Virus record (IMG/VR): IMGVR_UViG_3300035696_000005
Location: 64,001 to 128,000 of that record
DNA length: 64,000 bases
Reading direction: 5' to 3' (one strand)
DNA from: a virus
The position numbers and the translations under genes are program-made. Shown here piece after piece: positions 10,962 through 50,995 of the stretch (within the stretch, counting starts at the first letter, position 1; every line of letters starts with the position of its first letter). The notes beneath the pieces were generated by a model. It was not told the DNA's origin. It saw nothing but the letters and a program-made list of their open reading frames with translations, and did not search any database.

Positions 10962-10983
10962 TGTTAATGTCCTCCTCGAACAC

Positions 10984-11005
10984 CTTATACCTAATTTAAG
11001 GGTAA
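10984..11005 (-). promoter_or_regulatory. TTACCC-N10-TATAAG promoter/operator motif copy 1
   Basis: Intergenic; same motif and spacing at 34175, 40043 and 50122. Confidence 0.6.
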
Positions 11006-11017
11006 TTTTGCTTTAGC

Positions 11018-11494: not shown

Positions 11495-11504
11495 TTCATT
11501 CTCC

Positions 11505-11936
11505 TTATTTGGGACTGAACTTATTGGACTTCTTGAGTTCTTCTTTCATGGCTTTGGTTCTAACTTCAGAGGCTGACTTTTCTTTAGCGTCTACATGTCT
11601 TTGGTAATCTTTGGTATAGACTGACTTCGCCTTATCGTTTCCCATCTTCTGAAGATCTTTGGTTGTCCTATTTCCAACGGTATGCTCATGCTGCTCACGG
11701 GTAGCTGAGCGGTGAAACTTCTTACCGTCGCCAAGGTCGTATTTGAATCCAACGCGACCGTTCTGATCGTACTTAATTTTGAAATAGCCCGGAAGAGCGA
11801 CACGGTACTCAGCCTTACCGCCGCAGCAAGGGCAGGGCACTTCTTTAGGCTTCTCGCTATATTTGAAGATGTGCTCAACTAGCTCGTCACAAGTTGTGCA
11901 GACGAATTCATATAGAGGCATGGATCTTGTTCCCAA
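11505..11936 (-). CDS. FmdB-family zinc-ribbon protein
   Basis: MPLYEFVCTTC...CPCCGG. Confidence 0.75.
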   Translation of the reverse strand: MGTRSMPLYEFVCTTCDELVEHIFKYSEKPKEVPCPCCGGKAEYRVALPGYFKIKYDQNGRVGFKYDLGDGKKFHRSATREQHEHTVGNRTTKDLQKMGNDKAKSVYTKDYQRHVDAKEKSASEVRTKAMKEELKKSNKFSPK

Positions 11937-12114
11937 TATCAGGAAGAATCAGATTGCCAGGAGCTTTGGCAATTAATTTCACCTGCTCAAGCAGGTAGCC
12001 ATGAGGAAGCGTGGTGGTCTTAAGGATTTCAGCCGCATCTGTAGCAACCACGTACCAAAATAGATTTTCATCGTGTGGGTCTTTTGGGGTGAGGACGAGT
12101 TCGTAAAGGCGCAT
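11908..12114 (-). CDS. Hypothetical protein
   Basis: GGAG RBS plus ORF. Confidence 0.55.
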   Translation of the reverse strand: MRLYELVLTPKDPHDENLFWYVVATDAAEILKTTTLPHGYLLEQVKLIAKAPGNLILPDIGNKIHASI

Positions 12115-12168
12115 TGTGAATCTCCTAGGAAAATCCTACCCGAAATACACCCATGATACAATAGAGTT

Positions 12169-12408
12169 ATGGCCGAATCTTATGGACCGATCGCGCATCA
12201 GAGGATCAATCAGGATACCTCTATTAAGTTAGCGAACGGTGAGTCTAAAACACTCAGGCAAGGCACCTTTGTCAAAGCTATCCATAAAAGATACATGCCA
12301 GTTAACCATCCCCTTGAAGAGTATGACGACAGCTTTTACGTGGCTGTCTTTTCACCTTATGGACTCGGGCTTGTGGTTCGCTATGCAGTGGATTGGAACG
12401 TATTCTGA
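12169..12408 (+). CDS. Hypothetical protein, lone plus-strand, probably leaderless
   Basis: TG-A-TACAAT then 6 nt then ATG; no SD; followed by hairpin. Confidence 0.65.
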   Translation: MAESYGPIAHQRINQDTSIKLANGESKTLRQGTFVKAIHKRYMPVNHPLEEYDDSFYVAVFSPYGLGLVVRYAVDWNVF

Positions 12409-22215: not shown

Positions 22216-22587
22216 CTATTTCTTCCTTCCTGCTTCAAGAATAGGAAGACCCGCTTCTGTTGGCAGATAGATGATCTGCGCATTGGGGTTTTCCTTGAGT
22301 CCTTCGATGTAAAGCCATCGAAGGTAAGCCTCATTGTTTTTCAGGGAATCGCCGATGATAGCATTGGCTTTTGCCACACCTTCGGCACGAGCAATCTCTG
22401 CTGATGCCAAGTGGGTTGCGGCCTGTTCTTTTGCAAGCGCCTCCTGAACAGCAACTTTGGTGTTGTACTCGGCCTTGGAGAGTTCAGCCTTACCATCCAT
22501 CTCGGATTCCCAAACATGGTAGGGAGGCCAGATGCCGCACCCACTGACGGATACAGACAGCAAAAGCAGTGCAATTAGCTTTTTCAT
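22216..22587 (-). CDS. SPFH/stomatin-associated-like lipoprotein
   Basis: Lipobox VSGC; G.AEL...E, AEIARAEGVAKAN.IIG.SL..NEAYLRWLYI...IYLPTEAGLPILEAG. Confidence 0.7.
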   Translation of the reverse strand: MKKLIALLLLSVSVSGCGIWPPYHVWESEMDGKAELSKAEYNTKVAVQEALAKEQAATHLASAEIARAEGVAKANAIIGDSLKNNEAYLRWLYIEGLKENPNAQIIYLPTEAGLPILEAGRKK

Positions 22588-22850
22588 CGTGTGCTTCCTC
22601 TTTCTTCGAGTTCATGGGTAACAGGCGGATCGACCAATTTGATCGAACAAGTGCTGTACTTACGACCAACGACTGCGTCGCAGATGCGAGCGTTAAAGCC
22701 AGTGTCGAGCTCTACCTTACAGAAGTTCTCGCACATAGTGCTTACGCGACAGCTGATGATTTTCTTCACCTGAACAATGTCGCAGCTCTTGCTTGATGGA
22801 TCGTGTGCGCAGCCAGAAAGTAATACCAGAAACAACCAATACTTTTTCAT
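22584..22850 (-). CDS. Cys-rich lipoprotein
   Basis: Lipobox LSGC. Confidence 0.6.
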   Translation of the reverse strand: MKKYWLFLVLLSGCAHDPSSKSCDIVQVKKIISCRVSTMCENFCKVELDTGFNARICDAVVGRKYSTCSIKLVDPPVTHELEERGSTR

Positions 22851-23111
22851 TCATCCTCTTCTTTCTTGTATCTCGGGACGGTTTGCTTTTCGGAGAAGCA
22901 TGGTAGCTCCTGCTTCAGGCATTGGATCAAAAAATATATCTTGAAACTCTCCTGCTCCGTGCGTTGCGTGTCCAAGAACGTACCACGGGTGACGAGCATC
23001 TCCACTCTGAGCAATACCCATCACAACAGCAAACTCTCCTCTACGAAACCACCCCGATGGGTGATCTTGGTTGAACTTAATCATATCTCCTGGAAGATAT
23101 CCTGCGGTCAT
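22851..23111 (-). CDS. Hypothetical protein
   Basis: Operon-contiguous ORF. Confidence 0.5.
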   Translation of the reverse strand: MTAGYLPGDMIKFNQDHPSGWFRRGEFAVVMGIAQSGDARHPWYVLGHATHGAGEFQDIFFDPMPEAGATMLLRKANRPEIQERRG

Positions 23112-23114
23112 TTC

Positions 23115-23378
23115 TTACCTCGGTGAAATCAAACAAACCCAACCACTAGCTTGCGGAAACTTCTCCCGACAAGCTTCGTAGTGAAGGTAATGCATGAGAG
23201 CCCAAAAGCCAATACCAATCGCCAAGGAAAGATAAAGCTTCTTTTTCCAGCGAGGCATTGGATGGTTTTTTCGTTTTGCTTTCTCAACGTAGGCAGCGAC
23301 ATGATCGAGCGCCTCTGGGGAGAGTGCGTGGATTGAAGCTTCGAGCTCCTTAAGAGCCATCTCTTTTTCTGTACTCAT
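23115..23378 (-). CDS. Membrane-anchored hypothetical protein
   Basis: ATGA-coupled to terC. Confidence 0.55.
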   Translation of the reverse strand: MSTEKEMALKELEASIHALSPEALDHVAAYVEKAKRKNHPMPRWKKKLYLSLAIGIGFWALMHYLHYEACREKFPQASGWVCLISPR

Positions 23379-24058
23379 ACAATTCCTTTCACTTGATCAG
23401 TTGTGCAAGCCTGAACTTTCTCGGTAAAACCAGAAAGAAGAGCTAGCGCCATTCCTCCCCAGAAAACCCAGAAACTCAGGTGTGCTGAGGATTCAAAGTT
23501 TGCTCCTTGGATCTTAGCTCCTTCCATGACCATCTTAAGACCTACGATCAATACAAGAAGATAAGCACTTCGTTCAAGCTTCGGGAAAACCTCAATAGCT
23601 CGAATGAAGAGTCCGGATACAAATCGCATCATAGTGATGCCTAAAACGCCACCAGTGAAAACAACCCAAAACTTCTTACTCACAGCAACAGAAGCCAAGA
23701 TCGAGTCCATGGAAAAGGTGATGTCCGTGAGTTCCACGAACACCACCATCTTCCAGAACTTTCTAGAAAGTGCCTGCGCATCTGTCTTGGATTCATCCTC
23801 TTCGGGAGGACCGAAGAAGTGGTGCATTGCCATCCAAATCAAGTAACCGCCTCCCAGGAACTTCACCCAGTAAGAGCGCATCAAATAGGTTAGAAAGGCT
23901 AATGCAGTAAAGCGAAAACCATAGGCTCCGAAGATCCCGTAGGTTAACGCTTTCTTTTGTTGATTGTGAGGAAGGTGTTTCACCATGGCTGCAAGAGCCA
24001 GAGCATTATCAAAAGACAGGAGCCCTTCGAGAATGATCAAAAAACCAATAGCAACCAA
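23375..24058 (-). CDS. terC: TerC-family membrane protein; native start apparently lost at the 24068 junction
   Basis: LEGLLSFDNA, AYGFRF, VELTDITFSMDSILA; upstream codons AGG TCA CTT CAA GAC where ATG is expected, no RBS. Confidence 0.8.
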   Translation of the reverse strand: MVAIGFLIILEGLLSFDNALALAAMVKHLPHNQQKKALTYGIFGAYGFRFTALAFLTYLMRSYWVKFLGGGYLIWMAMHHFFGPPEEDESKTDAQALSRKFWKMVVFVELTDITFSMDSILASVAVSKKFWVVFTGGVLGITMMRFVSGLFIRAIEVFPKLERSAYLLVLIVGLKMVMEGAKIQGANFESSAHLSFWVFWGGMALALLSGFTEKVQACTTDQVKGIV

Positions 24059-24066
24059 GTCTTGAA

Positions 24067-24156
24067 GTGACCTACAACAAGCAGGACAACTCCGCTGAAA
24101 TCACCGAAGGCGCTCTTGAAGCCGAGTGCCATCTCGAAGCTCCGGACGCTCAGTAA
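24067..24156 (+). pseudogene. Headless 3' gene fragment (VTYNKQ...PDAQ*) followed by terminator
   Basis: GC3-rich codons, no RBS, in-frame stop at 24049; hairpin with U-tract at 24184-24220. Confidence 0.5.
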
Positions 24157-24511
24157 TCCGCTTCGTTTCATTTACGATGGGGCAAAGGGGCGGGCTCAGG
24201 CTTGCCCCTTTTTCTTTTCCCTTTCCGCCATTTTCCCGATTTTAAATAGCCCTAAACCAAACTGGCATCGTCCGCTGTGCAAAAGAGAACTGTGTAATTA
24301 CATGGACTTAGGAAGCAACTCTGAAATTCAAGCGCGGTACATATAAACTAAATTAGCTGCACTGAGGCCAACAGTTAATGATTTGCCGCGCATTCTGAAT
24401 GTCCTTCACAATGACATATTAGTTGAATACGGCTGTACCTTGGATATGGCAGGTCGGAGAACGGCGTTTGGCGAATTAGCGTAATCCACTGATTTCCGCT
24501 ATAATAGAAAT

Positions 24512-24745
24512 ATGTCGAACGAACGGCGTAAGCAACTCAAAGAGCTAAAAGAGAGTACAGGCGGCTACATGTCCGTAGATCGCCGCCAGGCACTTCGCCA
24601 GAATGCTGCTGACATTCAACGTCTAGTAAGACCCTTAGTTAGTCCCCAGCAACCCGCTCGCCCAGCCCCTCAGGCTGCAACTACACCGCCTACGACAACC
24701 CCTCCCCCAGCTTCCGGCACTGGCCCAGGCACAAGAAGGCAATAG
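24512..24745 (+). CDS. Small Pro/Thr-rich protein, leaderless
   Basis: TATAAT then 6 nt then ATG; ends in TAG. Confidence 0.6.
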   Translation: MSNERRKQLKELKESTGGYMSVDRRQALRQNAADIQRLVRPLVSPQQPARPAPQAATTPPTTTPPPASGTGPGTRRQ

Positions 24746-25037
24746 CTTATTTCTCCAATATCGCTCACCCAAACGTTAGTCCTGTGGGGCGTACCAGGAT
24801 TTTTCGCTCTATTCCTTTTTCAAGTGGGGATGCAGGCGAGAAATCGAAATGGGTGGGACTTCGTTGCTCAAGCCGCCGCGTTTGCGATGCTTTGCTTCGC
24901 CGTTTCCCGAATTGAACAAATTCTTCTCAAGCACATTCTGTGTGAACACTTCTATGCTTCTTTGAAAGGTTTTTGGAATTCTACCTTTCCCTACGAAGGC
25001 TCAGCTCAATATTTTCTCGCATCAGTTACTGCGGTCA
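24746..25037 (+). pseudogene. 5' part of a membrane-protein gene (PGF motif, DUF6338-like) truncated at the 25037 junction
   Basis: LISPISLTQTLVLWGVPGFFALFLFQ in frame after the TAG of 24512-24745; runs into antisense of the vWA gene. Confidence 0.4.
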
Positions 25038-25635
25038 GGTTTTTCTTCCCGATCGATTCCACCGTCAAGGTGTCCACGATGTCATACTTCGCGCCTTCTT
25101 TTTCGAGATCGTCGTCGAGACGATTCAAGAAAGCAGTCGCTTTGTCGTCGTGTCCGACCTGCACGAAAGTGATGTTGAGCTCATCCGGATTCGTGAGGCG
25201 GTTGGCCGCGTTCACGATCACTTTGGCGACCTTAGCTTGGTCGTCCGGCTCACCATCGGTCACGACGAAGATGGCTTCGCCGTTTGCTTTGGTCTTGCCT
25301 GCGGCTTTGCGGACGAGGTAGTCGTCCAGCTCAGCTGCGAGGGCAAGGTGCAGCGCAGTGCTGCCACCCGGCTCGGTGGTCTTGAAGATCTGCTCGACTT
25401 TGTCCGCTTTCACGCCAGTGTAGCGAACGGGGGCAGTCGAGAAGACTTGGAAGAAGATGCCTTCCGGCGACAGCTCAGCGAGTTTCGAAGCAACGCCAAT
25501 GGACGTTTCTTCGACAGCGGCCCAGCGGCTTTGAGTGCCGGTAGAGCCCGCGTCAGCAGTTCGCATGCTTCCGCTACGATCGATGAGAAGAGCGTAGTCG
25601 CGATTCAAGAGTGCCGGGTTAAGTGCCATAGTCAT
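25006..25635 (-). CDS. vWA domain protein; C-terminus probably replaced at 25033
   Basis: MIDAS DRSGS, GGST, VTDGEPD. Confidence 0.85.
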   Translation of the reverse strand: MTMALNPALLNRDYALLIDRSGSMRTADAGSTGTQSRWAAVEETSIGVASKLAELSPEGIFFQVFSTAPVRYTGVKADKVEQIFKTTEPGGSTALHLALAAELDDYLVRKAAGKTKANGEAIFVVTDGEPDDQAKVAKVIVNAANRLTNPDELNITFVQVGHDDKATAFLNRLDDDLEKEGAKYDIVDTLTVESIGKKNLTAVTDARKY

Positions 25636-25723
25636 TCTGATTCTCCTTTGATTGGTACTTCATTGATTAGCTAATCGAGTGGATAATCCACCCCTTTGTA
25701 GATGATCGATCACCTACAAAACT

Positions 25724-25951
25724 TTACGCAGCCGGAGGTAGATCCGGCTCTTCAGTCTTTTTGTCCTTCAGGTACTGAAGAAGCTTCTGGTAACACTCAA
25801 CTTCAGTGTCTGCAAGAAGCGATATCGGGCTCATTTTGAAATCAAGAAACTTAGGAATGCACTTCCCACTTTTTGTCCTCTCGATCTCAACATCCCGACC
25901 AGCAAGTCTACGAACCTGCCTTTTTAAAAACTCAAGATTGGGTTCCGCCAT
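25724..25951 (-). CDS. Hypothetical protein
   Basis: Operon-contiguous ORF. Confidence 0.55.
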   Translation of the reverse strand: MAEPNLEFLKRQVRRLAGRDVEIERTKSGKCIPKFLDFKMSPISLLADTEVECYQKLLQYLKDKKTEEPDLPPAA

Positions 25952-26183
25952 CTTTTACCTCGCTAAGAACTTTCGCAAGAGCAAGAACATCCTTCGCTGA
26001 ATCGAAGTTCTCGGATACGAATTGTTTGAGTGTACTTGTATCTGTTTTGATGAGACTAGGTCCCCCATCGAAGGCGAAAGAGGTTCCATCTTCAAACAAA
26101 AAATAGAGGACACCGTTACTCTCATCTTTGCCGACCCAGGCAAGTTTATTGCCGATCAGCTTCCTCAGCTCACTTATATCCAT
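25932..26183 (-). CDS. Hypothetical protein
   Basis: AAGGAG RBS. Confidence 0.55.
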   Translation of the reverse strand: MDISELRKLIGNKLAWVGKDESNGVLYFLFEDGTSFAFDGGPSLIKTDTSTLKQFVSENFDSAKDVLALAKVLSEVKDGGTQS

Positions 26184-26279
26184 TTATGGCTCCTTTTTGT
26201 TCGCATAAAGCGCGATCTGTGTCATCCAATGCACCACATTTCTGACACGATTTTGTGGTGAGCACAAGAAATAGGACGA

Positions 26280-27263
26280 CTAAGAAGACGACGTAGGTGT
26301 AGTTGCTTCCCGCTCTTCGCACGCTCTCAAAACCTCGCTGAACCGCACCGTGATGAGTTGCCTATCTGAGTGCTTGATGTACTCCTCATGAGTACTTGTG
26401 GCAATCTTCTGAATCCAGCCAAAGACATCGCCATGAAGATTATCCACATGGTGAACAAAGGCTGCCTCAGGAGTTGCCATGTCTACTGGGCTTCCGTAAG
26501 CAAGCTTACCGTGGTGGGCAAGAATCACATGACACATATGATCTCTGATCACTTCAGGTACGCCAAATTTGTTGCAGGTCTCAAAAACCAGCTGGCTCGT
26601 CATCGGGATGTGAGGAACTAATAGCCCCTGTACAGTCTTTTTGAACCCGGCTGATTGCTGGTACTCAAACATTTTACCGAAGTCGTGAAACAACACGCCA
26701 AACATGCAGAGATCTTTGTTAAGAGCATCTCTATAAAACGGAAGAGTAAAGAGCTTCTCGACGGTTTCACACATCTGAGAGGTATGCTCAAGAAGCCCTC
26801 CCACGAAAGCGTGGTGCATGTAGCTTGCTGCAGGGCTGATCCTAAAGCCTTCCTCAAAGCCTTGCTGGTGCATAAGATCAAACGCCACAGTCCTGAAGTA
26901 AGTGCTCTCAAAGCCTTCGATATAGCCGCAAACTTTAGCCCACATCTCCTCAACCGAGTAAGATGAAGTAACTGCGAAGTCTTCGTCATCGGTGCTCTCC
27001 CTAGGAGCGAGGCGTTCAATTTTGATCTGGGGTTTTCCTTCGTATTCACTCACACTTCCAGTAACGTGATAGATCGTATCTACGGCTGGAATAGAAGGTC
27101 CTAGATCCCACATGACAAAGACAACTGAACCGCTCTTATCGGAAAGTGTTCCCCTGGCGAACTGCGTATTTCTTTTAGTGACTCCTGTCTTAACTTCTTT
27201 AAACAGAAAGTCCGCTTGGATTTGCTGACCCATCTGAAGGTCTTTGACCATGAGTTTCGCCAT
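26280..27263 (-). CDS. OB-fold + HD-domain protein (YhaM/Cbf1-like 3'-5' exoribonuclease)
   Basis: N-terminal OB fold, PAA..MHHAFVGGLLEHT, FHDFGK, LAHHG, HHVD. Confidence 0.85.
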   Translation of the reverse strand: MAKLMVKDLQMGQQIQADFLFKEVKTGVTKRNTQFARGTLSDKSGSVVFVMWDLGPSIPAVDTIYHVTGSVSEYEGKPQIKIERLAPRESTDDEDFAVTSSYSVEEMWAKVCGYIEGFESTYFRTVAFDLMHQQGFEEGFRISPAASYMHHAFVGGLLEHTSQMCETVEKLFTLPFYRDALNKDLCMFGVLFHDFGKMFEYQQSAGFKKTVQGLLVPHIPMTSQLVFETCNKFGVPEVIRDHMCHVILAHHGKLAYGSPVDMATPEAAFVHHVDNLHGDVFGWIQKIATSTHEEYIKHSDRQLITVRFSEVLRACEEREATTPTSSS

Positions 27264-27693
27264 CTTTTCCTTCTTCCTTTTGAATCTCTTTTTCGTACTC
27301 GTTTACGAGCTTCTTGATGTTCTCGAACGACGTAGCGAATACCTTTTCTTTATCAAGCTCAGGCAAGCCATGCAGAACGATTGCGATCTGTTGAGCCATC
27401 AAGTGAAACGTGACGTTTGCCACCATATTGCACTGGGCAATAGGTTGCACAGCTGCTGCCGGGTTGACCTCCTCACCTTTGAAGAAAAGAAGGTTCTGAA
27501 GCACAGTAGGAAGTGGTTGATACTGATTCTCACCCACCTTCTGGTAGAGATTTCTCAGCTCGCCTGCATCCTTCTGCGCTTCGTTCCAGGGAGTATAAAG
27601 GGGTTTAAAGTCAGCGAAAAAATCGTGAAGGCTCTCACCAAGGCTGGTGAGTAGTTTGGCCTCCGTCACTTGCAAGAACTGTTTTGGGTGCAT
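27199..27693 (-). CDS. Hypothetical protein
   Basis: Operon-contiguous ORF; start uncertain. Confidence 0.5.
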   Translation of the reverse strand: MHPKQFLQVTEAKLLTSLGESLHDFFADFKPLYTPWNEAQKDAGELRNLYQKVGENQYQPLPTVLQNLLFFKGEEVNPAAAVQPIAQCNMVANVTFHLMAQQIAIVLHGLPELDKEKVFATSFENIKKLVNEYEKEIQKEEGKDGETHGQRPSDGSANPSGLSV

Positions 27694-27988
27694 ATTGAGT
27701 CTCCTGGCCCAATTCTTTCATTGCTTCACGTAGTAAGTCAACGGAAACTAAGCTAAAGAACTCAACTTGTTCCTTTCCAGTAGTGGGTTTCGTCGTGTAG
27801 ATCATGAGTTCACCCGAGGCATGCTTGGCAATTCTCAAGTTAGGTCCAATCTGTTTACTTCGGGATTGCATCACAAACGAGTTAATTTCTTGACTCACCT
27901 GCTCCAGAGAAAGCTGGAGCTGCTGCTTTCTTTGTCTTAGGCTCTTCAGTTGGGAACGGGATTCTGATTCAAAGAAATCGGGTTGCAT
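27635..27988 (-). CDS. Hypothetical protein
   Basis: GGAGGT RBS. Confidence 0.55.
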   Translation of the reverse strand: MQPDFFESESRSQLKSLRQRKQQLQLSLEQVSQEINSFVMQSRSKQIGPNLRIAKHASGELMIYTTKPTTGKEQVEFFSLVSVDLLREAMKELGQETQYAPKTVLASDGGQTTHQPW

Positions 27989-27991
27989 AGG

Positions 27992-28240
27992 TTACCTCCG
28001 AGGGGCGTTACGAACAGCAACAATAATTGCGTTAATGCGTGTACGAAGCGGACTTGGGTTGGACCCACTACTGAACTTCCAAAGCTCTTTTTTGAACTTA
28101 TTCAGGCAATGCATACATGTGACATTGCTGATCTCTGCAGTACTCGGCGCAGTCGCAACATAACTGTTGCATGCAACATAGGACGCTAGGCTGTTGTCAA
28201 TCATCGCGGATAGTTTAAGATGGACCTTTGGTCTGGCCAT
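27992..28240 (-). CDS. Hypothetical Cys-containing protein
   Basis: VTCMHC motif. Confidence 0.55.
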   Translation of the reverse strand: MARPKVHLKLSAMIDNSLASYVACNSYVATAPSTAEISNVTCMHCLNKFKKELWKFSSGSNPSPLRTRINAIIVAVRNAPRR

Positions 28241-28415
28241 TTTGTGTCTCCTTTTGAATTAGTAACAAATACGATCTGAGTTTACATTCAAGGCAATTTG
28301 GGAACATTACGTCCTTATGCCTGTGTCTATACAACAAGTATTCGATTGCTTCTTCGGTTAGTTGCTTAATTTGATTCATAGAAGAAAGAGGTACCCCTGA
28401 GTCGGATTCGCTCAT
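28215..28415 (-). CDS. Hypothetical protein
   Basis: ORF downstream of promoter. Confidence 0.45.
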   Translation of the reverse strand: MSESDSGVPLSSMNQIKQLTEEAIEYLLYRHRHKDVMFPNCLECKLRSYLLLIQKETQNGQTKGPS

Positions 28416-28472
28416 AAAAATTGCCCGTGCCTTGTGACTAAGCTCTTCGAACGAAGAGCGAAGGTATCTTTT

Positions 28473-28501
28473 AGTGTATGAAGAAGTGAGTAACCCGTCA
28501 A
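28473..28501 (-). promoter_or_regulatory. sigma70-like promoter
   Basis: TTGACG-N17-TACACT, intergenic. Confidence 0.65.
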
Positions 28502-28843
28502 TCAGTGCGACGACGAATTTTTTTCGTCTTTGTCTTTAAGAACTTCGATGAAGTTCTCTCGGCACTTTGCAAACAAATGCGCCATAGATTCAAAGATCTT
28601 TTCTAAGTAGCGCTCGTAATCGAACTGAGGGTTTTTTGCTGAGTGATAGGCCAGTTGTTTGACGAAGAGTGTAACAAGAGCCCCACCCATAATATCGAGC
28701 TCGACCGTTGATTTAAGCTTGTATTTTTTAATTTCATCGCTCTTAAAAAACTTATCAACTTCGGCTGCAACAAGTTTTTCAAGCTCACTTTGTACGAGGT
28801 CGGTGGGAAGCGCAGTATTCTTTTCTCTGACCCGAGCATTCAT
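28502..28843 (-). CDS. Hypothetical protein
   Basis: Operon-contiguous ORF. Confidence 0.55.
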   Translation of the reverse strand: MNARVREKNTALPTDLVQSELEKLVAAEVDKFFKSDEIKKYKLKSTVELDIMGGALVTLFVKQLAYHSAKNPQFDYERYLEKIFESMAHLFAKCRENFIEVLKDKDEKNSSSH

Positions 28844-36962: not shown

Positions 36963-38174
36963 CTACAAATGAAATTCCCGAACATCCTTACGAGTCGGGC
37001 CATACGAAATTAAGCCACTTTCCGCATCAAGACTATCCAGAAGTAACTTCATGAAGTTTTCCACTGAAGTTGACTGAAGAGAACTGCTAACGTTAAAGCC
37101 GTTACCGACGTTACAGTTGTAGATGACTCCACGATCCCCTACCTGATCGGCGCAGGTGATTGCGTAGTGAGGGCGGGCTATAAGTCCTCCTCCCCTAAAC
37201 AAATCATCCATTACTCGGGCGGTTAGATAATCGAAGTCGATGATTCCGAATCTGAGATCCCCCTGATGGGCGTTCGTCACATTCGTTGTGTCAGAGGCTT
37301 TGTCGTACGGAAGCTTTTCCATCTCCTCAGGAAAGGGTCCAGCTCCGTGCCGAGTGACGTAAGTCCTTGTTACGTAGTAAACATCGATCGGGGTAGCGAT
37401 ACTCCGAGCCGCGAGCAACTTAGCCACATTTTTTAGACCCGTCTTCGACCTGGTAACATGTGGAAAGAAGGTATGATCTTCATCCAACATGAGTCCTTGA
37501 GCACCCTCAAACACAACGTTCTCGTGATCTAGCTCCAGATCCTCCCACTTGCAAATATTTGTGAGAAAAACCATCTTCTCGCAATCTCCAAGAAAGTTCT
37601 CAAGGAGCTGAGGATGGTTGAGATAAGGAAGCTTACTGTCCGAAATCTTCAGCTGATCCAATCGAGCAGGAACATACTTCTCTCGAATGTGCTTCAGCTT
37701 ATCCATAAGATCTTTTGAGAAAAGATCCTTAAAGCTTAAGGTGAAGTCGGGGTCCTGATTGCGGTGAACGGTCTCGTTAAAACCCATGCCGCAACTTCCG
37801 TGCTTCTTATCCCCCCGAGATTCCTCGGCTGCCTGGTTGATCATGATGTCAAAAGGAGTCGTAATAGGGCAGCGATGGTCGATGTAGGTGTTTGGAGCAA
37901 AGCCCATCGCAGACAGGACTTTAAGTTCCTCAACAAAGAAAATTGGGCATGCAACAAAATATTGGCTTAAGAAGGTTTCAGCTTTAGCCAGGGTACCTGA
38001 TCCGAAATGATGAAACACGTGGCGTTTTCCTTCCGGGGTAACAACGGTGTGCCCGGCTTGCGCTCCGCCATTGAAGCGAACAACCATAGAACTCGACTGA
38101 GACGAGAGATAGTCAGTGATTAATCCTTTGCCTTCGTCCCCGTAGTTTGCACCGATAACTGTTGAAATTTTCAT
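36963..38174 (-). CDS. purA: Adenylosuccinate synthetase-like protein (divergent PurA clade)
   Basis: GDEGKG, RFNGGAQAGHT, EGAQG..LD, TRHGAGPF. Confidence 0.85.
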   Translation of the reverse strand: MKISTVIGANYGDEGKGLITDYLSSQSSSMVVRFNGGAQAGHTVVTPEGKRHVFHHFGSGTLAKAETFLSQYFVACPIFFVEELKVLSAMGFAPNTYIDHRCPITTPFDIMINQAAEESRGDKKHGSCGMGFNETVHRNQDPDFTLSFKDLFSKDLMDKLKHIREKYVPARLDQLKISDSKLPYLNHPQLLENFLGDCEKMVFLTNICKWEDLELDHENVVFEGAQGLMLDEDHTFFPHVTRSKTGLKNVAKLLAARSIATPIDVYYVTRTYVTRHGAGPFPEEMEKLPYDKASDTTNVTNAHQGDLRFGIIDFDYLTARVMDDLFRGGGLIARPHYAITCADQVGDRGVIYNCNVGNGFNVSSSLQSTSVENFMKLLLDSLDAESGLISYGPTRKDVREFHL

Positions 38175-38446
38175 ACTAACTCCTTATGCCCGCAAGGTTC
38201 CCCGCAGGCGCAAAAACATCCGAGAGGGCCAAAGCCAATAACGGATCGATGGACGAACACAAAATCACCGTCAGACAGTTCAGCAGTCTTTGGTGTGGGT
38301 TCTCCATTTATCCCATAGCCCCAACAGGGATACTTGGTCATAGCCTGAGTGAATTCTGGAACTGCCGCTATAGCCTCACCCACGGTATTCGCACAAACGA
38401 CGTGTTTGTCCTTCCCAAGCATCTGCACTACGATGTTCTTAGCCAC
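38171..38446 (-). CDS. Ubiquitin-like (beta-grasp) protein 2, no di-Gly, Cys-rich tail
   Basis: Aligns with 44412-44612 (MAK, Q.LG.D, TVG, NGEP, LSD..FV); ends IGFG-PLGCFCACGEPCGH. Confidence 0.65.
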   Translation of the reverse strand: MAKNIVVQMLGKDKHVVCANTVGEAIAAVPEFTQAMTKYPCWGYGINGEPTPKTAELSDGDFVFVHRSVIGFGPLGCFCACGEPCGHKELV

Positions 38447-38697: not shown

Positions 38698-39612
38698 TTA
38701 CAGGGACGCGGTTCCCGAGCCCCTACCTGCCGAAAGAGAACTTACGGCATTTCTTACAACTACTGCGGTGTTACCTTCCCAGCTTGAGGCAACATCGTCG
38801 TGATCGTGTCCTTCATTGACCTGAATGGCGCTGACGATCACTTCAGCAAGTTTAGTGTGATCCGCAAGACGGATCGCACGTTGCGGAAGAATTCGGTTCC
38901 AGTCTTGGAAAACCTGATCTGTTCTTCCGCGAGCATAACTACCTTCTTCCACAATAATGTGGAATACCTCATAGACCCGAGAGACTTCAGTGAGAAGCTC
39001 ACGTGCCGAAATATCGGTATGAGCATTATCACCAAAGAAGTTATTCAGGTCCCTGGCTCGAAGCATTGGGGTAGGCAGCTCGTCACCGATGGTGAAGAGA
39101 TAACCTTTCTTGCCCCGCTTCTCAACGCAGTCCGTACTGGTATGGCGAGCTCCCATGTACCAGGCAGCGATATAGGACTCGTAAGGATTCCCACCACCTC
39201 CGCCTTCCAGGTAGAACTTCTCCAGCTGCTGGGCGATCCTGAGATCGGCTTCAAACTGGGTTGCCTGGACAGGAGCACGGTCGCATTCCATATCACCGAT
39301 AGCCATGCACATAATGTGCGGATCAGTGACGGGTCTACGCTGGTAGATCTCCGATACCAGAGTTGGAACCCCTTTGCGAGCCATGTGATCTGAGATCATT
39401 CCCATTGATCCGGTAACGTCCTGAGCGATGATGATCGCTGTAGACTGCGGATTATCAGAGGAATCTCTGGATTCACGGACTCTGACGCCCTTCACATCCA
39501 GAGCGGCATCGATCCTCCGGCTGGTGAAAATCTCGTCCGTGGTCTTCGTTTCGTAGCTATTTGTCGTAGCGTAGGCTTCCCAATCCTTCGGATTAAACCT
39601 TCCTGATCCCAT
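38698..39612 (-). CDS. vWA-like domain protein
   Basis: IAQDVTGSMG, AIGD, EGGGGGNPYESY, FTIGDE. Confidence 0.8.
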   Translation of the reverse strand: MGSGRFNPKDWEAYATTNSYETKTTDEIFTSRRIDAALDVKGVRVRESRDSSDNPQSTAIIIAQDVTGSMGMISDHMARKGVPTLVSEIYQRRPVTDPHIMCMAIGDMECDRAPVQATQFEADLRIAQQLEKFYLEGGGGGNPYESYIAAWYMGARHTSTDCVEKRGKKGYLFTIGDELPTPMLRARDLNNFFGDNAHTDISARELLTEVSRVYEVFHIIVEEGSYARGRTDQVFQDWNRILPQRAIRLADHTKLAEVIVSAIQVNEGHDHDDVASSWEGNTAVVVRNAVSSLSAGRGSGTASL

Positions 39613-40065: not shown

Positions 40066-40278
40066 TTAGAATCCCTTTCTGGTTGGAACCGACTGCTCAA
40101 TTCCCATACCGCTATTGGCTACTGTCTGAAGGTGCTTAGAACAAGATTCACAAAACCTATGCGACTTATCGGTCTTAATCATCTTGCCACCACACCATCC
40201 AAGACACGGTCTATATTTAACTCCCTTCTGTTTATGAGCAACATTTCTCGACATGTTCTTAGAGGTTTTAGAGCTCAT
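40066..40278 (-). CDS. Small Zn-finger protein (end of Ubl operon)
   Basis: CLGWC...CESC. Confidence 0.65.
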   Translation of the reverse strand: MSSKTSKNMSRNVAHKQKGVKYRPCLGWCGGKMIKTDKSHRFCESCSKHLQTVANSGMGIEQSVPTRKGF

Positions 40279-40976
40279 CGAGGGGCTCCGGAAGTCAGTC
40301 CCTGAACAAACAGATCCATCACGTTGCGTCTCTGCGAGGGTGGAACGGGGAAGTGATCAAGAGCATTCTGAAATGCCGTAGCAACCGCTTCAGGACTGAG
40401 CCCAGGCGTTCTTGGGATTGTCGTTGGACCGCCTAGCGCACCGGTGACACGTGCCGCGAACTCCACCGCAGAAGTAGGTTCTCTAAAGAAGACTCTTTGT
40501 TCTTCGCTGCTGATACCCCACTCTTCGCGCTCATCGTTCCAGTAAGGTCCGCGATATTCTCTCTCCAACTTCTCAACCCAGTTGGCTGAATGACGTATCA
40601 AGGCCGACATACCCCCGCTAAAGCCACGGGAAAAGACAAGCGAGCCTCTCATTAGCTCTGGAAATGAGACACGGTTAACAATGTCGTAAATCTTTACGAC
40701 CATCATGTCAGCCGTTCCCATGACAATCTGCCTTTCGGCAATAATGTGGTTTTTGAAAATCAGTTCGGTAAACATATTCACCTCCGTAGCGGGTAATATT
40801 TGTCGAGCAACACTTTCGCCGAGCATATCCGGAAACATCAGCTCGTACATATCTCGGATATTAAACCCAGTAGTCGACTCAAACGGCTTTAAGAAAATAT
40901 CATCGAGAATAAGGTCTAGACCTTCAAGTCTTCTTCCACGCGATGAATTGGTCATCCTTAATGCTCCATTGGGCAA
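40275..40976 (-). CDS. Hypothetical protein in Ubl operon
   Basis: Contiguous with E1; start probably MTNSSR. Confidence 0.6.
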   Translation of the reverse strand: MPNGALRMTNSSRGRRLEGLDLILDDIFLKPFESTTGFNIRDMYELMFPDMLGESVARQILPATEVNMFTELIFKNHIIAERQIVMGTADMMVVKIYDIVNRVSFPELMRGSLVFSRGFSGGMSALIRHSANWVEKLEREYRGPYWNDEREEWGISSEEQRVFFREPTSAVEFAARVTGALGGPTTIPRTPGLSPEAVATAFQNALDHFPVPPSQRRNVMDLFVQGLTSGAPR

Positions 40977-41748
40977 GCCTGAGATACTTCCCAGGACTTG
41001 TCACAAGATCTTTGACTGCCTTAGCTACCAGCCCAGACAGCATATTTGCGGTGTAAATTGTAGCTTTTGCCGTGCATCTCTCTTGGACCGCTGAATCGTC
41101 CGTATAGAGGGTCTTCTCATAACTCTCGATATCCCTCTCATCCATCGGGCTCATGACGTAAAGCAGTGCCGTCTCAGCCCCCATCCTAGGATCGATGATT
41201 GCCTTTGTGAACGGAGCCTGATTTTTGTGGTTCATCCAGATGCGCTTACGCACTTCCATTGAATCCACAGCCGAGATCACAATGCCTGGGAATGTGCCGC
41301 GCTCATAACGTTCATCGCGTGCAGCGATCTCAGTCTTGGTGAAATCAGCCACAAGCTTCTGAAGAGCAGTGACCTTCTTTGTTCCGATGTCGCTATAGCG
41401 ATAAAATTGGCTATTCATGTTCTCTTCTTCGATCTTATCGAAGTCGATAATAGTAATATCGCCGAAACCCATCTTAGCCAAAGCGAGAGCGGTGAATGAG
41501 CCAATGGCCCCTGCCCCAATGATCGTGATCTTTTCTCCTAACACTTCGAGGGGAATCAAATCCAACTGACGCGTCAAATTGACATTCTTAAGTTCCATAT
41601 TTCCTCCATAAAACCATTCTGTTGTGCAGATGTCTCCACAGAGCATGTCTCCTACGGACCAAATGACTGAGCCGCAATTTTTGCAATGCTCCTTCAAATG
41701 AATCCGTAGGAGAAATCTATCGAGTCTGCCGAGCTTCTTACCAACCAC
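40924..41748 (-). CDS. E1-like (ThiF/MoeB family) Ubl-activating enzyme; main start 41598, optional in-frame N-terminal Zn finger
   Basis: RQLD, IIGAGAIGS, DFDKIEEEN..SQ, K, SAVDS, IDPRMG, catalytic-like ERCT. Confidence 0.9.
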   Translation of the reverse strand: MVGKKLGRLDRFLLRIHLKEHCKNCGSVIWSVGDMLCGDICTTEWFYGGNMELKNVNLTRQLDLIPLEVLGEKITIIGAGAIGSFTALALAKMGFGDITIIDFDKIEEENMNSQFYRYSDIGTKKVTALQKLVADFTKTEIAARDERYERGTFPGIVISAVDSMEVRKRIWMNHKNQAPFTKAIIDPRMGAETALLYVMSPMDERDIESYEKTLYTDDSAVQERCTAKATIYTANMLSGLVAKAVKDLVTSPGKYLRLAQWSIKDDQFIAWKKT

Positions 41749-42514
41749 CCGAGTGGCCGTTTCTCATCGGCGGCCCTGCCTTGGGCGCGCCGATTGTTCG
41801 TCGTTCCTCCAAATACTCCTGAATTTCTTCAGGAGTCATGGGTGGAATCCGATCCTCGATCCCTGGACCATCATCCTCAACGGTGCGGCTTGGGTGGTGC
41901 GGAAGGAGAGGAAGCTGCCCACCTTCCCCACTTCTGAAGTCGCTTGAGCTTCTTCCGCTCTCGCTTGGATAGCGACTTTCCGACTTTCCCCAGGTGTAAG
42001 TCCTCATGAGATTAGTCACATTCTTCTCATAATCATCATCCCATTTCTTGACCGCTTCAGGATCAAGATACTGGATTTGCTGAGTAGGAATGTTATCGAT
42101 GAATCCCAAAGGAAGTGGGCTTACCATGCTCAATGCAGAGCGCATTTCATGCCTCTTATTGAATACGGTGGAAACAAACCAACCCCCTTGAGTGATCTTA
42201 TCGATTGTGTCGCGATCCGTTCCACTCCAGAAGACATCCATGTTGACGTGGCTATGCCACCACCAACGAAGATCTCCGGGAGTATCCTTAAGAAGGAACA
42301 TCGCCTTACCAACATCAGCACCCTCGATGTCGGTATGCGCTGAACCGTTCTTTTGAGGAAGAAGAATCGCATCGATCACCGTGATCCTTCCGTCCTTGTA
42401 GGTGATCTTACCGAGACCGGAAACTTCATAGCTCGACTTGTTCACCCAGTGCATGATCTTATGGTAGACCATGCTCTCAATCATAATGTGCGTTCCAACT
42501 ACTTCATTTGCCAT
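41738..42514 (-). CDS. JAB/JAMM metallopeptidase (deubiquitinase-like)
   Basis: YEVSG (Glu), WWHSH...FWSGTD JAMM motif. Confidence 0.9.
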   Translation of the reverse strand: MANEVVGTHIMIESMVYHKIMHWVNKSSYEVSGLGKITYKDGRITVIDAILLPQKNGSAHTDIEGADVGKAMFLLKDTPGDLRWWWHSHVNMDVFWSGTDRDTIDKITQGGWFVSTVFNKRHEMRSALSMVSPLPLGFIDNIPTQQIQYLDPEAVKKWDDDYEKNVTNLMRTYTWGKSESRYPSESGRSSSDFRSGEGGQLPLLPHHPSRTVEDDGPGIEDRIPPMTPEEIQEYLEERRTIGAPKAGPPMRNGHSGGW

Positions 42515-42529
42515 GAATGATTCCTTTCA

Positions 42530-43885
42530 TTAATCACGGTTGTCTTCACGACGTTCAGGTGCTGCGCTCATAAACGCCTCTACGTTAGCAGAGGGTGTTA
42601 GAGGAGGATTCAGGTTCGGTCCAACAAAGATTGGATTAAGAGCTCCCCTGAGCCTACTAAATTCCTCCTGTCTACGAGCTGACTCACGAGACACCCTGCA
42701 GATATCGCACTCACACCCATCCATTGCGGGTTGAGTTGAATCTGTCGGGTGACCTGGCGGAGGTGTTACCCTATCCAATGAGATTCCCCTAAGAGCCTGA
42801 AGGAGGGCTTCGTTTTCGGAGAATGACCCGATCGATACCTCTACGGGACTGGTAAGACCCTCTAGAATACTAATCCCAGGATGCCTCGCGTAACCCATTA
42901 CTGGCGGTGCCGGACGAACTTCCGTTGCAGCAGCAGCCGCACGAGCTCTCCCGGCCTCCATCTCAGGGGGAAGGGGCGGCGGAGCATCTTTAGGAGGTGC
43001 GTCTCTCTCTGCCTTTTTCTGAAATTCAGCCAATGATCTGTAGGGGTTTCCATCGTTATAGTTCGTTAGAACGCTAGCGAGGAGCCTCAGAACATCGGCA
43101 ATTTCTCCTTTCGGTAGTTTTTGAGCCACAGTAGTTGCGGCAGTTCCCCAACAGATGTTTCCGGAAGGGTTAATGTGTGGGTGATAGTAGCCTCCCTCAA
43201 GTTCGATGTTCCCTTCATACTTAAGAACGCTTACCGTCATAGCACGAAGATTGATGATTGCGCGAACCTTCCCAAAGTTCACGCGAAGATCAATGCTTGC
43301 AGCCGCGTTCCGTTGTGTTAGAAGAATATCGTTCCTGGTAGTGAGTTCCAGATTCTCACCTGTCAGCTGGTGAAAATCCCAGAAGTTCTCCTGAAGAATC
43401 TGGGCAATCTGACCCGAAGCCGTTGATTCGCGACGCTCCAAAGCCATGATGTTTACTTCAACCCTGTGGGCTTCCGTAAGGTCGGCGTTGGCTCGCTCGA
43501 ACGAACGAATCGCGTTTGAGATATAGGAATCTCTGTTCTTCCTAAGATTCAAGATCTCCCGATCAGTCTGAGTTCTGGTCAGCGCGTCGATTTGATCACT
43601 GATCCGCTGCTCTAGAGCAAAGACCTGAGCCGGGGTCTTAGTCTTGATTTCCTCAACCTTCGCAAAAAATCTTTTGTTGATCTCCGTCTTATCGGTAATG
43701 AGTTCATTGCCCTTACCAGCACCAAAGACCTGAAGAAGATCCCAGGGCTCCATTTTGGTGCCAGTCTGGTTGGCAAGAAGCTCGATGTATTGAACTGCCA
43801 GGATGTGTGCCTTTTGCTTTTCGGCACCCATCCTGGAGAACGGCTTATAGCCTGAACGAATAACTTCACGTAGATTCATGACCAT
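42530..43885 (-). CDS. E2-like Ubl-conjugating enzyme with long helical N-terminus
   Basis: YYHPHINPSGNICWG (HPH...G.IC active site), LL..VL..YN...PY. Confidence 0.82.
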   Translation of the reverse strand: MVMNLREVIRSGYKPFSRMGAEKQKAHILAVQYIELLANQTGTKMEPWDLLQVFGAGKGNELITDKTEINKRFFAKVEEIKTKTPAQVFALEQRISDQIDALTRTQTDREILNLRKNRDSYISNAIRSFERANADLTEAHRVEVNIMALERRESTASGQIAQILQENFWDFHQLTGENLELTTRNDILLTQRNAAASIDLRVNFGKVRAIINLRAMTVSVLKYEGNIELEGGYYHPHINPSGNICWGTAATTVAQKLPKGEIADVLRLLASVLTNYNDGNPYRSLAEFQKKAERDAPPKDAPPPLPPEMEAGRARAAAAATEVRPAPPVMGYARHPGISILEGLTSPVEVSIGSFSENEALLQALRGISLDRVTPPPGHPTDSTQPAMDGCECDICRVSRESARRQEEFSRLRGALNPIFVGPNLNPPLTPSANVEAFMSAAPERREDNRD

Positions 43886-44343
43886 CTCCCCACTTTCTCG
43901 GCATAGTATTCATCGCCATTACTGTCGAAGTAAGTTAGTTCCAAGGAGTCAGGAGCTCTTGGAATATCGTACCCACCGTAGTTGCAGTGCCCAAGGTCAA
44001 GCAAATAGTCCCTAGCAGCGTCCGTCATCGCCTTTAGATCTTTTTGCTCTTCCTCGGAAATATTAAACTTTTTAGCCACTGCTGCCACTAGAACTGGGTT
44101 ATTAGCAAACTTTTTGGCAGTATCATCCAACAGCTCGTCGCAGTCATCGCCACCAAGACCACGGCTGGCAACCTTAATTTGCTCCCTGTAAAGCTTCATC
44201 AGCTCTTCGATCTCGCCCTCATACTTATCCGAATATACAAGGCCGGTCTTGTATCCGTCCGCATCACCCTCCATGAAGGTAATGGCAAGACGATACTGAT
44301 TTTTTCGGCAAGCCTGCTTAAGTTTTAATTTAGAAACGTCCAT
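43876..44343 (-). CDS. Hypothetical protein between Ubl and E2
   Basis: Contains MEGDAD motif; overlaps E2 start. Confidence 0.65.
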   Translation of the reverse strand: MDVSKLKLKQACRKNQYRLAITFMEGDADGYKTGLVYSDKYEGEIEELMKLYREQIKVASRGLGGDDCDELLDDTAKKFANNPVLVAAVAKKFNISEEEQKDLKAMTDAARDYLLDLGHCNYGGYDIPRAPDSLELTYFDSNGDEYYAEKVGRWS

Positions 44344-44366
44344 GCACGCGCCCCCTAAAAAATAAA

Positions 44367-44392
44367 AGGGACGCCTGAAACCAGGCGTCCCT
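44367..44392 (-). terminator. Intrinsic terminator after Ubl gene
   Basis: 11-bp stem AGGGACGCCTG/CAGGCGTCCCT then TTTATTTTT. Confidence 0.75.
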
Positions 44393-44411
44393 CAATTCCC
44401 TTCGACCTAAA

Positions 44412-44612
44412 TTAGATCTTGCCGCCCTTGACTGCCGGGCTCAGCGAGACGAATTCGAAGTCAGACAGCTGGTAGCTATCTTCAGCCGGTTCGCCGTTGA
44501 CGGTGGCGGTGTGGGTCGCTACACCGAGGCGAGACTTAACCTGGCCTACGGTCCCGCAATCATCGAGAACCTTCGGGTCGCCGCCCAGGACTTGTGCAGT
44601 TACTTTTGCCAT
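44412..44612 (-). CDS. Ubiquitin-like (ThiS/MoaD fold) modifier, C-terminal GG followed by KI
   Basis: 66 aa; TVGQV, VNGEPA, L.D...V.L...VKGG; first gene of E2/JAB/E1 operon. Confidence 0.88.
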   Translation of the reverse strand: MAKVTAQVLGGDPKVLDDCGTVGQVKSRLGVATHTATVNGEPAEDSYQLSDFEFVSLSPAVKGGKI

Positions 44613-44708
44613 TTTGTTTCTCCTTCTTTCTTGTACAAGTTACAACGAGAGATCTATCCCTCGCACCAGTCTTATATCTCACACTAGGAAGAATTTGCCT
44701 AGCTAAAA

Positions 44709-44737
44709 AAAGACCCCGCTAAGTACGCGGGGTCTTT
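44709..44737 (-). terminator. Intrinsic terminator upstream of Ubl operon
   Basis: AAAGACCCCGC/GCGGGGTCTTT stem plus U-tract. Confidence 0.7.
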
Positions 44738-50917: not shown

Positions 50918-50995
50918 TGGCGCGCCCGTTCGGACTCGAACCGAAAACTAGCCTTTTTTAGAGAAAGGCTCCTCTACCAATTGAGGTACGGGCGC
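50918..50995 (-). tRNA. Amber suppressor tRNA (anticodon CUA), 6-bp anticodon stem, encoded CCA
   Basis: GCGCCCG/CGGGCGC acceptor, CCTC/GAGG D-stem, GCCTTT-CTCTAAA-AAAGGC, TTCGG-TTCGAGT-CCGAA, G73-CCA. Confidence 0.88.

Follow-up and report, generated by a model that had tools for sequence, protein, structure and literature searches.

A virus-borne gene cassette with the predicted parts of a minimal ubiquitin-like conjugation cascade

Introduction

We find that a virus genome in IMG/VR carries a compact cassette encoding a ubiquitin-like protein (Ubl), an E2-like protein, a JAB/JAMM protease and an E1 enzyme, and that these four genes recur in fixed order in about 40 viral loci, on contigs of 20–180 kb with otherwise unrelated flanks. 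The cassette lies on the minus strand of a 64,000-nucleotide stretch of DNA, here called the window, which comprises bases 64001–128000 of virus record IMGVR_UViG_3300035696_000005 (182,359 bp, rated 100% complete by CheckV). A fixed order of the same four genes, repeated in about 40 independent viral loci, goes far beyond what chance would produce. We favor, with modest confidence, the reading that the cassette is a self-contained, phage-encoded Ubl conjugation cascade that serves the phage's own infection cycle. A preliminary description of the window, made from the sequence alone, had proposed an operon of seven genes (Ubl, X, E2-like, JAB, E1, Y and ZnF). The seven co-oriented open reading frames (ORFs) are all present in the ORF listing, where they fill positions 44612–40066, but only Ubl, E2, JAB and E1 are conserved between loci, and X, Y and ZnF do not belong to the core. 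Full-text literature searches turned up no account of a phage cassette of this kind.

Results

Four genes recur together in viral genomes

A scan of IMG/VR with the JAB alignment gave 35 further loci, on contigs of about 10–183 kb, and iterated hidden Markov models (HMMs) placed Ubl, E2, JAB and E1 in order in nearly all 35. When the loci were clustered all against all, these four were the sole shared genes, and gene X therefore falls outside the system. The arrangement varies at its edges: a Logan contig of 180,793 bp reads Ubl, E2 paralogue, E2, JAB, E1, Y, ZnF, and a 43-kb fragment has Ubl, E2, JAB, E1, Y and ZnF with X missing. A separate family of 46-kb phages has Ubl (ending ..KGGAN), E2 (HWH..CWG), JAB and E1 beside a primase-helicase gene, and one JAB protein of this family was read on 24 contigs. 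The cassette is also common. A profile of the E2 core, run against 1.84 billion representative proteins, gave 7321 matches at E ≤ 1e-3, 3006 at E ≤ 1e-10 (counted as protein clusters) and 306 at E ≤ 1e-30, and the JAB has 719 word-sharing homologues; none of these has been named or characterised.

Among cultured phages the picture is different in that only E1 can be followed by direct comparison. The operon gave no blastn match to 50,697 GenBank phages, and tblastn of the JAB and E2 proteins gave none to cultured GenBank phages. PHROG searches with Ubl, E2 and JAB were likewise negative. E1 reaches the FpV4 group of Flavobacterium psychrophilum phages and the crAss001-like Bacteroides phages at 26–33% identity, where the matched gene is annotated as 'thiamine biosynthesis protein ThiF'. 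In both groups the three genes upstream of E1 follow the cassette plan (FpV4 gp50–53, locus L050; crAss001 gp76–79, locus L051). The N-terminal part of FpV4 gp53 and crAss001 gp79 ends in ..VKSGG or ..IKSGA and is followed by a tail of 130–200 residues; crAss001 gp78 and FpV4 gp52, of about 420–444 amino acids (aa), have an MHSH..C-x-G motif; and the JAMM proteases of the two blocks are detected by the JAB profile (E 2e-12 and 4e-16). The protease gene crAss001 gp77 is annotated 'metalloprotease domain containing protein', and the remaining non-E1 genes of the blocks are 'hypothetical'. Both blocks adjoin genes for a uracil-DNA glycosylase, a primase and an exonuclease. The E2 and Ubl profiles fail on the crAss001 and FpV4 counterparts, the best E2-profile value for gp78 and gp52 being E 0.09, and in BFVD these two proteins have weak structural matches to a crAss-like virus protein and a 420-aa protein. 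On the grounds of position, motif and the weak BFVD matches, gp78 and gp52 are tentative E2 candidates. With JAB and E1 matched significantly, and Ubl and E2 by motif only, homology of the whole block to the cassette is likely, and a diverged form of the cassette has probably been overlooked in cultured phages, including crAss001 of the human gut.

Among cellular genomes, a JAB pattern scan of 185,579 species genomes (GTDB) gave two short contigs, both from archaeal metagenome-assembled genomes (MAGs), and an HMM scan of 301 Asgard genomes gave five matches. A closed, single-contig Asgard genome of 4.94 Mb has Ubl, E2, JAB and E1 at 160–163 kb (locus L060, excerpt G261:C1:151000-170900, cassette at about 9231–12388 of the excerpt, in a region of 34% G+C). 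Its Ubl ends in ..IDGGSR, its E2 has HPH..CFG and a large Cys-rich tail of CxxC repeats, and its E1 is matched at E 2.5e-56; the neighbours are radical-SAM, AAA ATPase, DUF3150 and IMPDH-like genes. A Terminase_6N search of this genome gave nothing, and provirus status of the locus is unsupported. Earlier work has reported E1-like genes in Asgard viruses (10.1101/2021.07.29.454249).

The E1 enzyme

The E1 gene (40924–41598, minus strand) encodes 224 aa that match Pfam ThiF (PF00899) with 75.8 bits against a cut-off of 28.1 (3.8e-21) and form a single adenylation domain with no extra domain; the 224-aa length and the single domain are shared by all 30 homologues. The two motifs by which the preliminary description had recognised it, GAGAIG and ERCT, are both present. 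Invariant in 30 E1 homologues are R10, the GxGxxG motif (28–33), D52, D54, N60, K75, D112, R117, D136, R138, C175 and T176. The cysteine of ERCT, C175, occurs in 39 out of 41 E1 sequences, with gaps in the remaining two, and is a candidate for the catalytic cysteine of the crossover loop. The best relatives in the PDB are UBA5, PaaA and MccB, with the nucleotide-binding part alone covered, and TcdA is also matched. The nucleotide-binding region furthermore matches the PADLOC models for CBASS Cap2 'E1-E2' at about 1e-13, and BubCD at 4e-4 in the PDB search.

The ORF reaches 41748, but the most likely start is the ATG at 41598, because the E1s of close relatives are all 224 aa and a GGAGG lies six bases ahead of it. 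An in-frame GTG at 41748 would add a 50-aa, Cys-containing N-terminal extension, which we rejected since the relatives lack it. Between JAB and E1 lies a gap of 139 nt (within 41599–41748, minus strand) that the E1 reading frame crosses without a stop, coding for HCKNC..CGDIC; the P0018 contig has a gap of equal length, and loci L003 and L052 have none.

The ubiquitin-like protein

The Ubl precursor (44412–44612, minus strand) has 66 aa and an AAGGAG ribosome-binding site ahead of it, and it ends in ..AVKGGKI, in agreement with the KGG-KI terminus described earlier. Its AlphaFold2 (AF2) model has beta-grasp secondary structure with a mean predicted local distance difference test score (pLDDT) of 89.3, and Foldseek matches it to ubiquitin, NEDD8, MoaD, ThiS and Mth1743. 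By sequence profile the best PDB match of the family is SAMP2 of Pyrococcus furiosus (5LDA_B) at 5e-10. G63 is nearly invariant in 23 homologues; the next residue is G or A, and 0–15 residues follow. Across the loci the C-termini read ..VKGG plus 0–4 residues, or ..VKGA, or extend into longer basic tails. The protein has the features that mark ThiS/MoaD/SAMP-type proteins, a beta-grasp fold and a C-terminal glycine that can be exposed. Because residues follow the conserved glycine, the Ubl would need trimming, and the tail that the preliminary description had expected to be removed is there.

A second Ubl-like paralogue is encoded at 38171–38446 (minus strand). It has 91 aa, is 32% identical to the Ubl and aligns with the Ubl family, with ..VIGFG instead of ..VKGG and a Cys/His-rich tail after it. 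Its stop overlaps the start of an adenylosuccinate-synthetase-like (PurA-like) gene at 36963–38174 (minus strand; Pfam 1.5e-50), whose best PHROG is phrog_1211, with the family name '2-aminooxy adenylosuccinate synthetase'. We take this family to be PurZ-like, and one may ask whether the genome contains 2-aminoadenine (Z-base).

The likeness of Ubl and E1 to biosynthetic proteins brings up an alternative, namely that the Ubl carries sulfur as a thiocarboxylate or, as an acyl-adenylate, serves acceptors other than proteins (for example nucleotides, tRNA or lipids), with the cysteine of the E2-like protein as a relay. The Ubl family profile does match MoaD (1VJK, 1e-5) and ThiS (2CU3, 0.011), the E1 is of minimal ThiF/MoeB size with its further matches to MccB, PaaA and TcdA, public annotations name it a thiamine biosynthesis protein, and the Ubl-like paralogue is coupled to the PurA/PurZ-like gene 6 kb away. 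However, Ubl and E1 are constantly accompanied, in about 40 loci, by a protein of ubiquitin-conjugating (UBC) fold with a conserved HPH..C site and by a JAMM isopeptidase, and the best Ubl match, SAMP2, is an archaeal protein modifier that was solved with a JAMM protease. The preliminary description had remarked on the lack of sulfur-pathway genes nearby, and we find neither rhodanese (PF00581) nor ATP_bind_3 (PF01171) anywhere in the genome, in searches that hit 13–14 out of 14 control genomes and which did not cover MoaE and ThiG; with these, a PP-loop/TtuA-type ATPase is missing, and the E1 itself has no rhodanese domain. We regard the sulfur-carrier alternative as weak and its truth as unlikely.

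The E2-like protein and its predicted contact with E1

The E2-like protein (42530–43885, minus strand; 451 aa; contains YYHPHINPSGNICWG) has three parts: a helical N-terminal region (about 1–150), a UBC core (about 150–296) and a disordered tail. The core is confidently modelled by AF2 (pLDDT about 90) and carries the putative active-site motif HPH-x7-C, with H235, P236 and H237 followed by C245. These four residues, together with W246 and G247, are invariant in 16 E2-like homologues. Family-wide, H-P-[HNYF], the cysteine and a downstream YN..PY motif are conserved, and the HPH-x-C site is found in 33 diverse cores; most members read HPH, L012 alone reads HPN, and a few have HPY or HPF. The top 50 Foldseek matches of the model in the PDB are all E2 enzymes. 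VIA-align superposes 116 of 150 residues on UbcH8 with Z 8.2 and a root-mean-square deviation (rmsd) of 3.2 A, and 267 chains have Z ≥ 5. A profile of the 33 core sequences aligns with UbcH7 from helix 1 to the active site and sets HPH-x7-C on HPN-x7-C(86). By sequence the E2-like protein is the weakest of the four, but the modelled core has the UBC fold and a conserved cysteine, in line with the E2-like identity given in the preliminary description.

The long helical N-terminus that had been noted is likewise seen in the AF2 model, where the first 150 residues form long helices, one of them of about 65 residues. The tail is disordered except for a conserved H..CxCxxC knuckle and a helix. The length of these flanks depends on the lineage and ranges from about 60 residues to over 500. 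An 'E2-E1 fusion' considered in locus L018 was set aside, the N-terminal part of that 668-aa ORF being without an E2 motif or profile match.

When two E1 chains were modelled together with the E2 core, the interaction prediction score (ipSAE) came to 0.61, compared with 0.00 for the best of three controls; 58 of 80 solved complexes and 2 of 110 mismatched pairs attain that mark. E1–E2 complexes have already been solved, so the pass may partly reflect likeness to these, and the alignments were of our own making. Runs share at least 94% of their contacts, with a partner pLDDT of at least 85, and in the model the E2 residues that directly follow the catalytic cysteine touch E1 residues 126–130. 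The model thus supports binding between E1 and E2.

The JAB protease

The JAB/JAMM (MPN+) gene (41738–42514, minus strand; 258 aa) encodes EVSGLG and HSHVNMDVFWSGTD. It has an exact HxHx7SxxD motif, with the upstream glutamate in EVSGLG, that is, the full zinc site E..HxHx7SxxD, of which the preliminary description had named the HSH...SGTD part. None of the 26 aligned homologues departs from E30, H87, H89, S97 or D100. The catalytic domain covers about residues 1–165 and is followed by a variable tail that ends in ..GGW. The closest PDB match of the JAB profile is the Rpn11-like protein of Caldiarchaeum subterraneum (6FJV, 1.2e-5), followed by eukaryotic Rpn11/PSMD14, and several homologues carry PF14464 and PF01398 annotations.

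In the clade of the window's phage the JABs end in a conserved ..NG.(S/T)GGW with GPP ahead of it (41738–41760 in the window, minus strand). Conceivably, this tail acts as a pseudo-substrate of the protease or offers E1 a second substrate. Tails of this kind bring up a system directed mainly at itself or at a fused cargo, in which release of the Ubl from its tail by JAB, or auto-conjugation of the enzymes (for example through the GGW tail of the JAB), would regulate a phage process with no broad modification of targets. Besides the GGW end, the long basic tails after the glycine in the Ubls of L011, L013 and L025 and the 130–200-residue tails of FpV4 gp53 and crAss001 gp79 are in line with it. 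Most Ubls, however, have just 0–4 extra residues, and processing alone would not need a conserved E2 and an E1 with an invariant cysteine. We consider a purely self-directed role very improbable.

Layout of the locus and accessory genes

A terminator-like hairpin of the upstream gene lies at 44709–44737 (minus strand; 11-bp stem with 7 G-C pairs, T-run) and is predicted to isolate the cassette transcriptionally. A second hairpin, a terminator or attenuator, separates the Ubl stop from gene X at 44366–44393 (minus strand; 12-bp stem with 8 G-C pairs, then TTTTATTTTTT). It stands directly behind the Ubl stop, where the preliminary description had placed a terminator, and because a strong terminator sits at this point, the Ubl is probably made in excess over the enzymes. 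The promoter proposed in the same description did not hold up. The TATAAG hexamer is present at 44671–44676 (minus strand), but it occurs 74 times in the genome where about 96 occurrences are expected, its copies share no context, and a promoter role is unsupported. A scan for sigma-70-type promoters gave no site upstream of Ubl.

The three remaining genes have no assigned core role. Gene X (43876–44343, minus strand; 155 aa, no assigned function) has weak PHROG matches only (phrog_8562 and phrog_2290, about 3e-6). It is absent from locus L052, and in L003 its place is taken by a second, shorter E2 paralogue (5837–6730, 297 aa) that keeps HPH..CWG; in the P0018 contig a 285-aa gene in the same slot is also a second E2 paralogue. 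Some of these phages apparently have two active E2s. Gene Y (40275–40976, minus strand; up to 233 aa, start uncertain, no assigned function) recurs only in L052, as a protein of 174 aa with 39% identity, and in L003, as one of 197 aa, and has no Pfam, PHROG or PADLOC match. Atlas searches with X and Y gave no usable match, and the Atlas has Y from residue 8 on. ZnF (40066–40278, minus strand; 70 aa) is a four-Cys zinc-ribbon-like protein (CLGWC..x17..CESC) with homologues in L052 (62% identity) and L003 and just sub-threshold Pfam zinc-ribbon and RING matches. Y and ZnF are confined to the clade of the window's phage.

Genome setting and host

The genome encodes phage functions, among them an archaeo-eukaryotic primase and a baseplate J-like protein, and a protein with a K1-lyase_C domain at its end, which is probably a tailspike. 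It also encodes a single-chain RNA polymerase of 2033 aa in which beta and beta' are fused (genome positions 22467–28568; 2467–8568 of L045). The nearest cultured phages by this polymerase are the Vibrio phages D181, D148 and D69, with genomes of about 187 kb, whose proteins match 93% of its length at about 30% identity, and Salmonella phage Arash, with 32% identity over 70%. The genes of the region have AAGGAG/GGAGG ribosome-binding sites, and the terminators are hairpins with a T-run. As the Shine-Dalgarno sites, the hairpin terminators and the affinity of the RNA polymerase to Vibrio and Salmonella phages all point the same way, the host is probably a bacterium, and probably a proteobacterium. 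An archaeal host, suggested by the JAB-pattern matches in archaeal MAG contigs, was set aside for this phage on the same three grounds; it does hold for some other members of the cassette family, as in the Asgard locus.

Two further features of the window are noted here. A tRNA with a CUA anticodon at 50918–50995 (minus strand) is labelled tRNA-Pyl by ARAGORN, while TAG is still used as a gene stop in this genome. The 304-aa product of a gene at 38698–39612 (minus strand) belongs to phrog_2971 (1.5e-51), and its DxTGS motif resembles the MIDAS site of vWA domains. A phrog_2971 homologue lies near the cassette in L003 too, and in none of the other cassette loci.

In the window the cassette lies near an SbcC-like gene and the PurA-like and NAMPT genes, and D5-like primase-helicases adjoin the cassette in at least eight loci. 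Its carriers differ greatly in size and are apparently lytic phages. On these surroundings rests our reading of a function in the phage's own early or middle programme. An alternative is that the cassette is a phage-carried, Bil-like exclusion system that would tag structural or other proteins of competing phages or trigger abortive outcomes, and in this way keep the infected cell for the resident phage. Gene content and order match those of BilABCD (PMC11601596, PMC10557695), the cassette behaves as an accessory module with unrelated flanks, the closest cultured phages with a fused RNA polymerase lack it, and the two E2 paralogues of some relatives would fit a diversified recognition of targets. 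On the other hand, the cassette proteins have no PADLOC match except in the nucleotide-binding region of E1 (the CBASS E1-E2 models), and this E1 is a single domain of 224 aa and not the IAD-AAD-CYS of BilD. The cassette sits in replication or early modules of apparently lytic phages, the diverged crAss001/FpV4 form included, and it was not found adjoining other defence genes. We consider a defensive role conceivable but rather unlikely.

Discussion

We propose the following order of events for a conjugation cascade run by the phage itself. The folds, the conserved catalytic motifs, the gene order and a modelled E1–E2 contact are documented above; we infer the chemical steps, the absence of an E3 and the role. 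The Ubl would be made as a precursor, in excess over the enzymes, and JAB would trim the residues beyond the conserved glycine. A homodimeric minimal E1 would then adenylate the exposed glycine and probably take the Ubl onto Cys175, from where it would be passed to Cys245 of the E2. The conserved core has no E3 partner, since no E3-like gene is conserved across the cassette loci, and because the flanks of the E2 furthermore vary between lineages, we suggest, in line with what has been proposed for Bil, that the E2 picks its targets itself by its extensions at either end and attaches the Ubl to their lysines. JAB could also reverse the modification. We place the system in the early or middle programme of the phage, where modification of host or phage proteins could serve take-over of the cell, counter-defence or control of replication. 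The roles put forward in the preliminary description (modifying host proteins, pre-empting host Ubl defence or excluding competing phages) are conjectural, and the one contextual hint is the repeated position of the cassette in replication and early-gene modules.

Several observations weigh against this reading. The case for the E2 is the least clear by sequence: Pfam UQ_con gives 13.1 bits where the cut-off is 27, the E-values of the E2 profile against the PDB are marginal (0.01–0.03), a structural Z of about 8 falls in the middling range by the tool's own rating, and most E2s of the family have HPH where canonical E2s have HPN. The JAB of the window is also below the Pfam Prok-JAB cut-off (13.7 against 25 bits). 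Moreover, the bacterial host is deduced from the genome, the notion that the phage itself benefits is drawn from the gene neighbourhood, and we know of no reader or proteasome for a Ubl tag in bacteria.

Two neighbouring genes may offer a lead to tag-directed unfolding. A ClpA/B-type double AAA+ ATPase is encoded directly behind the cassette of a 178-kb viral contig (L037, 6458–8977), and an AAA ATPase lies two genes past the Asgard cassette (L060, 14439–15998). We speculate that the cassettes could belong to a large, unrecognised family of compact, E3-less ubiquitylation systems in viruses of bacteria and archaea (SAMP2-like Ubl, HPH-type E2, Rpn11-like JAB, minimal E1) that tag host proteins during take-over. 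In some lineages the tag might feed AAA+ unfoldases, so that tagged proteins would be removed in cells without ubiquitin of their own, and in view of the archaeal and eukaryote-like affinities and the Asgard copy, viruses could have been a vehicle for the early spread of E2-dependent ubiquitylation. So broad a picture is a bold one, and we hold it to be doubtful.

If the cassette conjugates proteins, it would add a new layer to the interaction of phage and host, with a ubiquitin-like tag in a cell that has no proteasome, and if our reading is true, a compact E1–E2 pair without an E3 would be available for mechanistic work. We point out that, because the Ubl ends in ..VK-GG, trypsin digestion should mark modified lysines with a residual Gly-Gly if the mature end is G64, and standard diGly proteomics would be applicable.

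To our knowledge, the complete prokaryotic Ubl-E2-JAB-E1 systems known so far are host defences (Bil, CBASS Cap2/3 and Bub). The cassette described here puts Ubl conjugation machinery on the side of the virus, and viruses of microbes may run ubiquitin-type systems of their own. The closest parallel in layout is BilABCD, which has Ubl, E2, JAB and E1 in the same order and encodes no E3 (PMC10557695, PMC11601596). Type II BilA, like the Ubls here, has variable residues after the conserved glycine, which BilC trims (PMC10557695), and the BilD E1 has the architecture IAD-AAD-CYS (PMC11601596). The cassette differs from BilABCD in being encoded by viruses and not in bacterial defence islands, in its 224-aa E1 with a single adenylation domain, in the HPH-x7-C site of its E2, which is close to the eukaryotic HPN-x-C, and in a Ubl that is most like SAMP2 and MoaD. 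No Bil entry is among the PDB sequence matches of Ubl, E2, JAB or E1, and Ubl, E2 and JAB have no match in PADLOC, whose Bil models are unconfirmed. The likeness to Bil drawn in the preliminary description therefore stands for parts and gene order and not for E1 architecture, and it gains no support from the sequence searches.

Type II CBASS Cap2/Cap3 and Bub (6E/DUF6527) resemble the cassette in using E1, E2 and JAB-type chemistry in the conflict between phage and bacterium. Cap2, however, is an E2-E1 fusion that conjugates a CD-NTase and not a free Ubl, whereas the cassette genes are separate; and Bub works through Tyr/Ser oxyesters without a catalytic cysteine, whereas the E1 and E2 of the cassette keep an invariant cysteine. 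An earlier pairing of Ubl and JAB in phages is that of TAPI (Ubl) and TAPK (JAB-NlpC) in lambda and T1 (PMC1779556). These lie in tail-assembly clusters and have no E1 or E2, while the cassette lies in early or replication regions and has both.

The best sequence matches of the cassette Ubl and JAB are to the archaeal SAMP/UbaA/JAMM1 and Caldiarchaeum Ub-E1-E2-RING-Rpn11 systems. SAMPylation proceeds without an E2, which the cassette has; in the Caldiarchaeum operon the Ubl is of ubiquitin type and a RING E3 is encoded, whereas the cassette is without a conserved E3 and is carried by viruses. In conclusion, the closest solved relatives of the cassette proteins are archaeal and eukaryotic (SAMP2, Rpn11-like, UBA5 and UbcH7/8) and not Bil, and together with the Asgard copy these affinities are relevant to how ubiquitin systems have spread.

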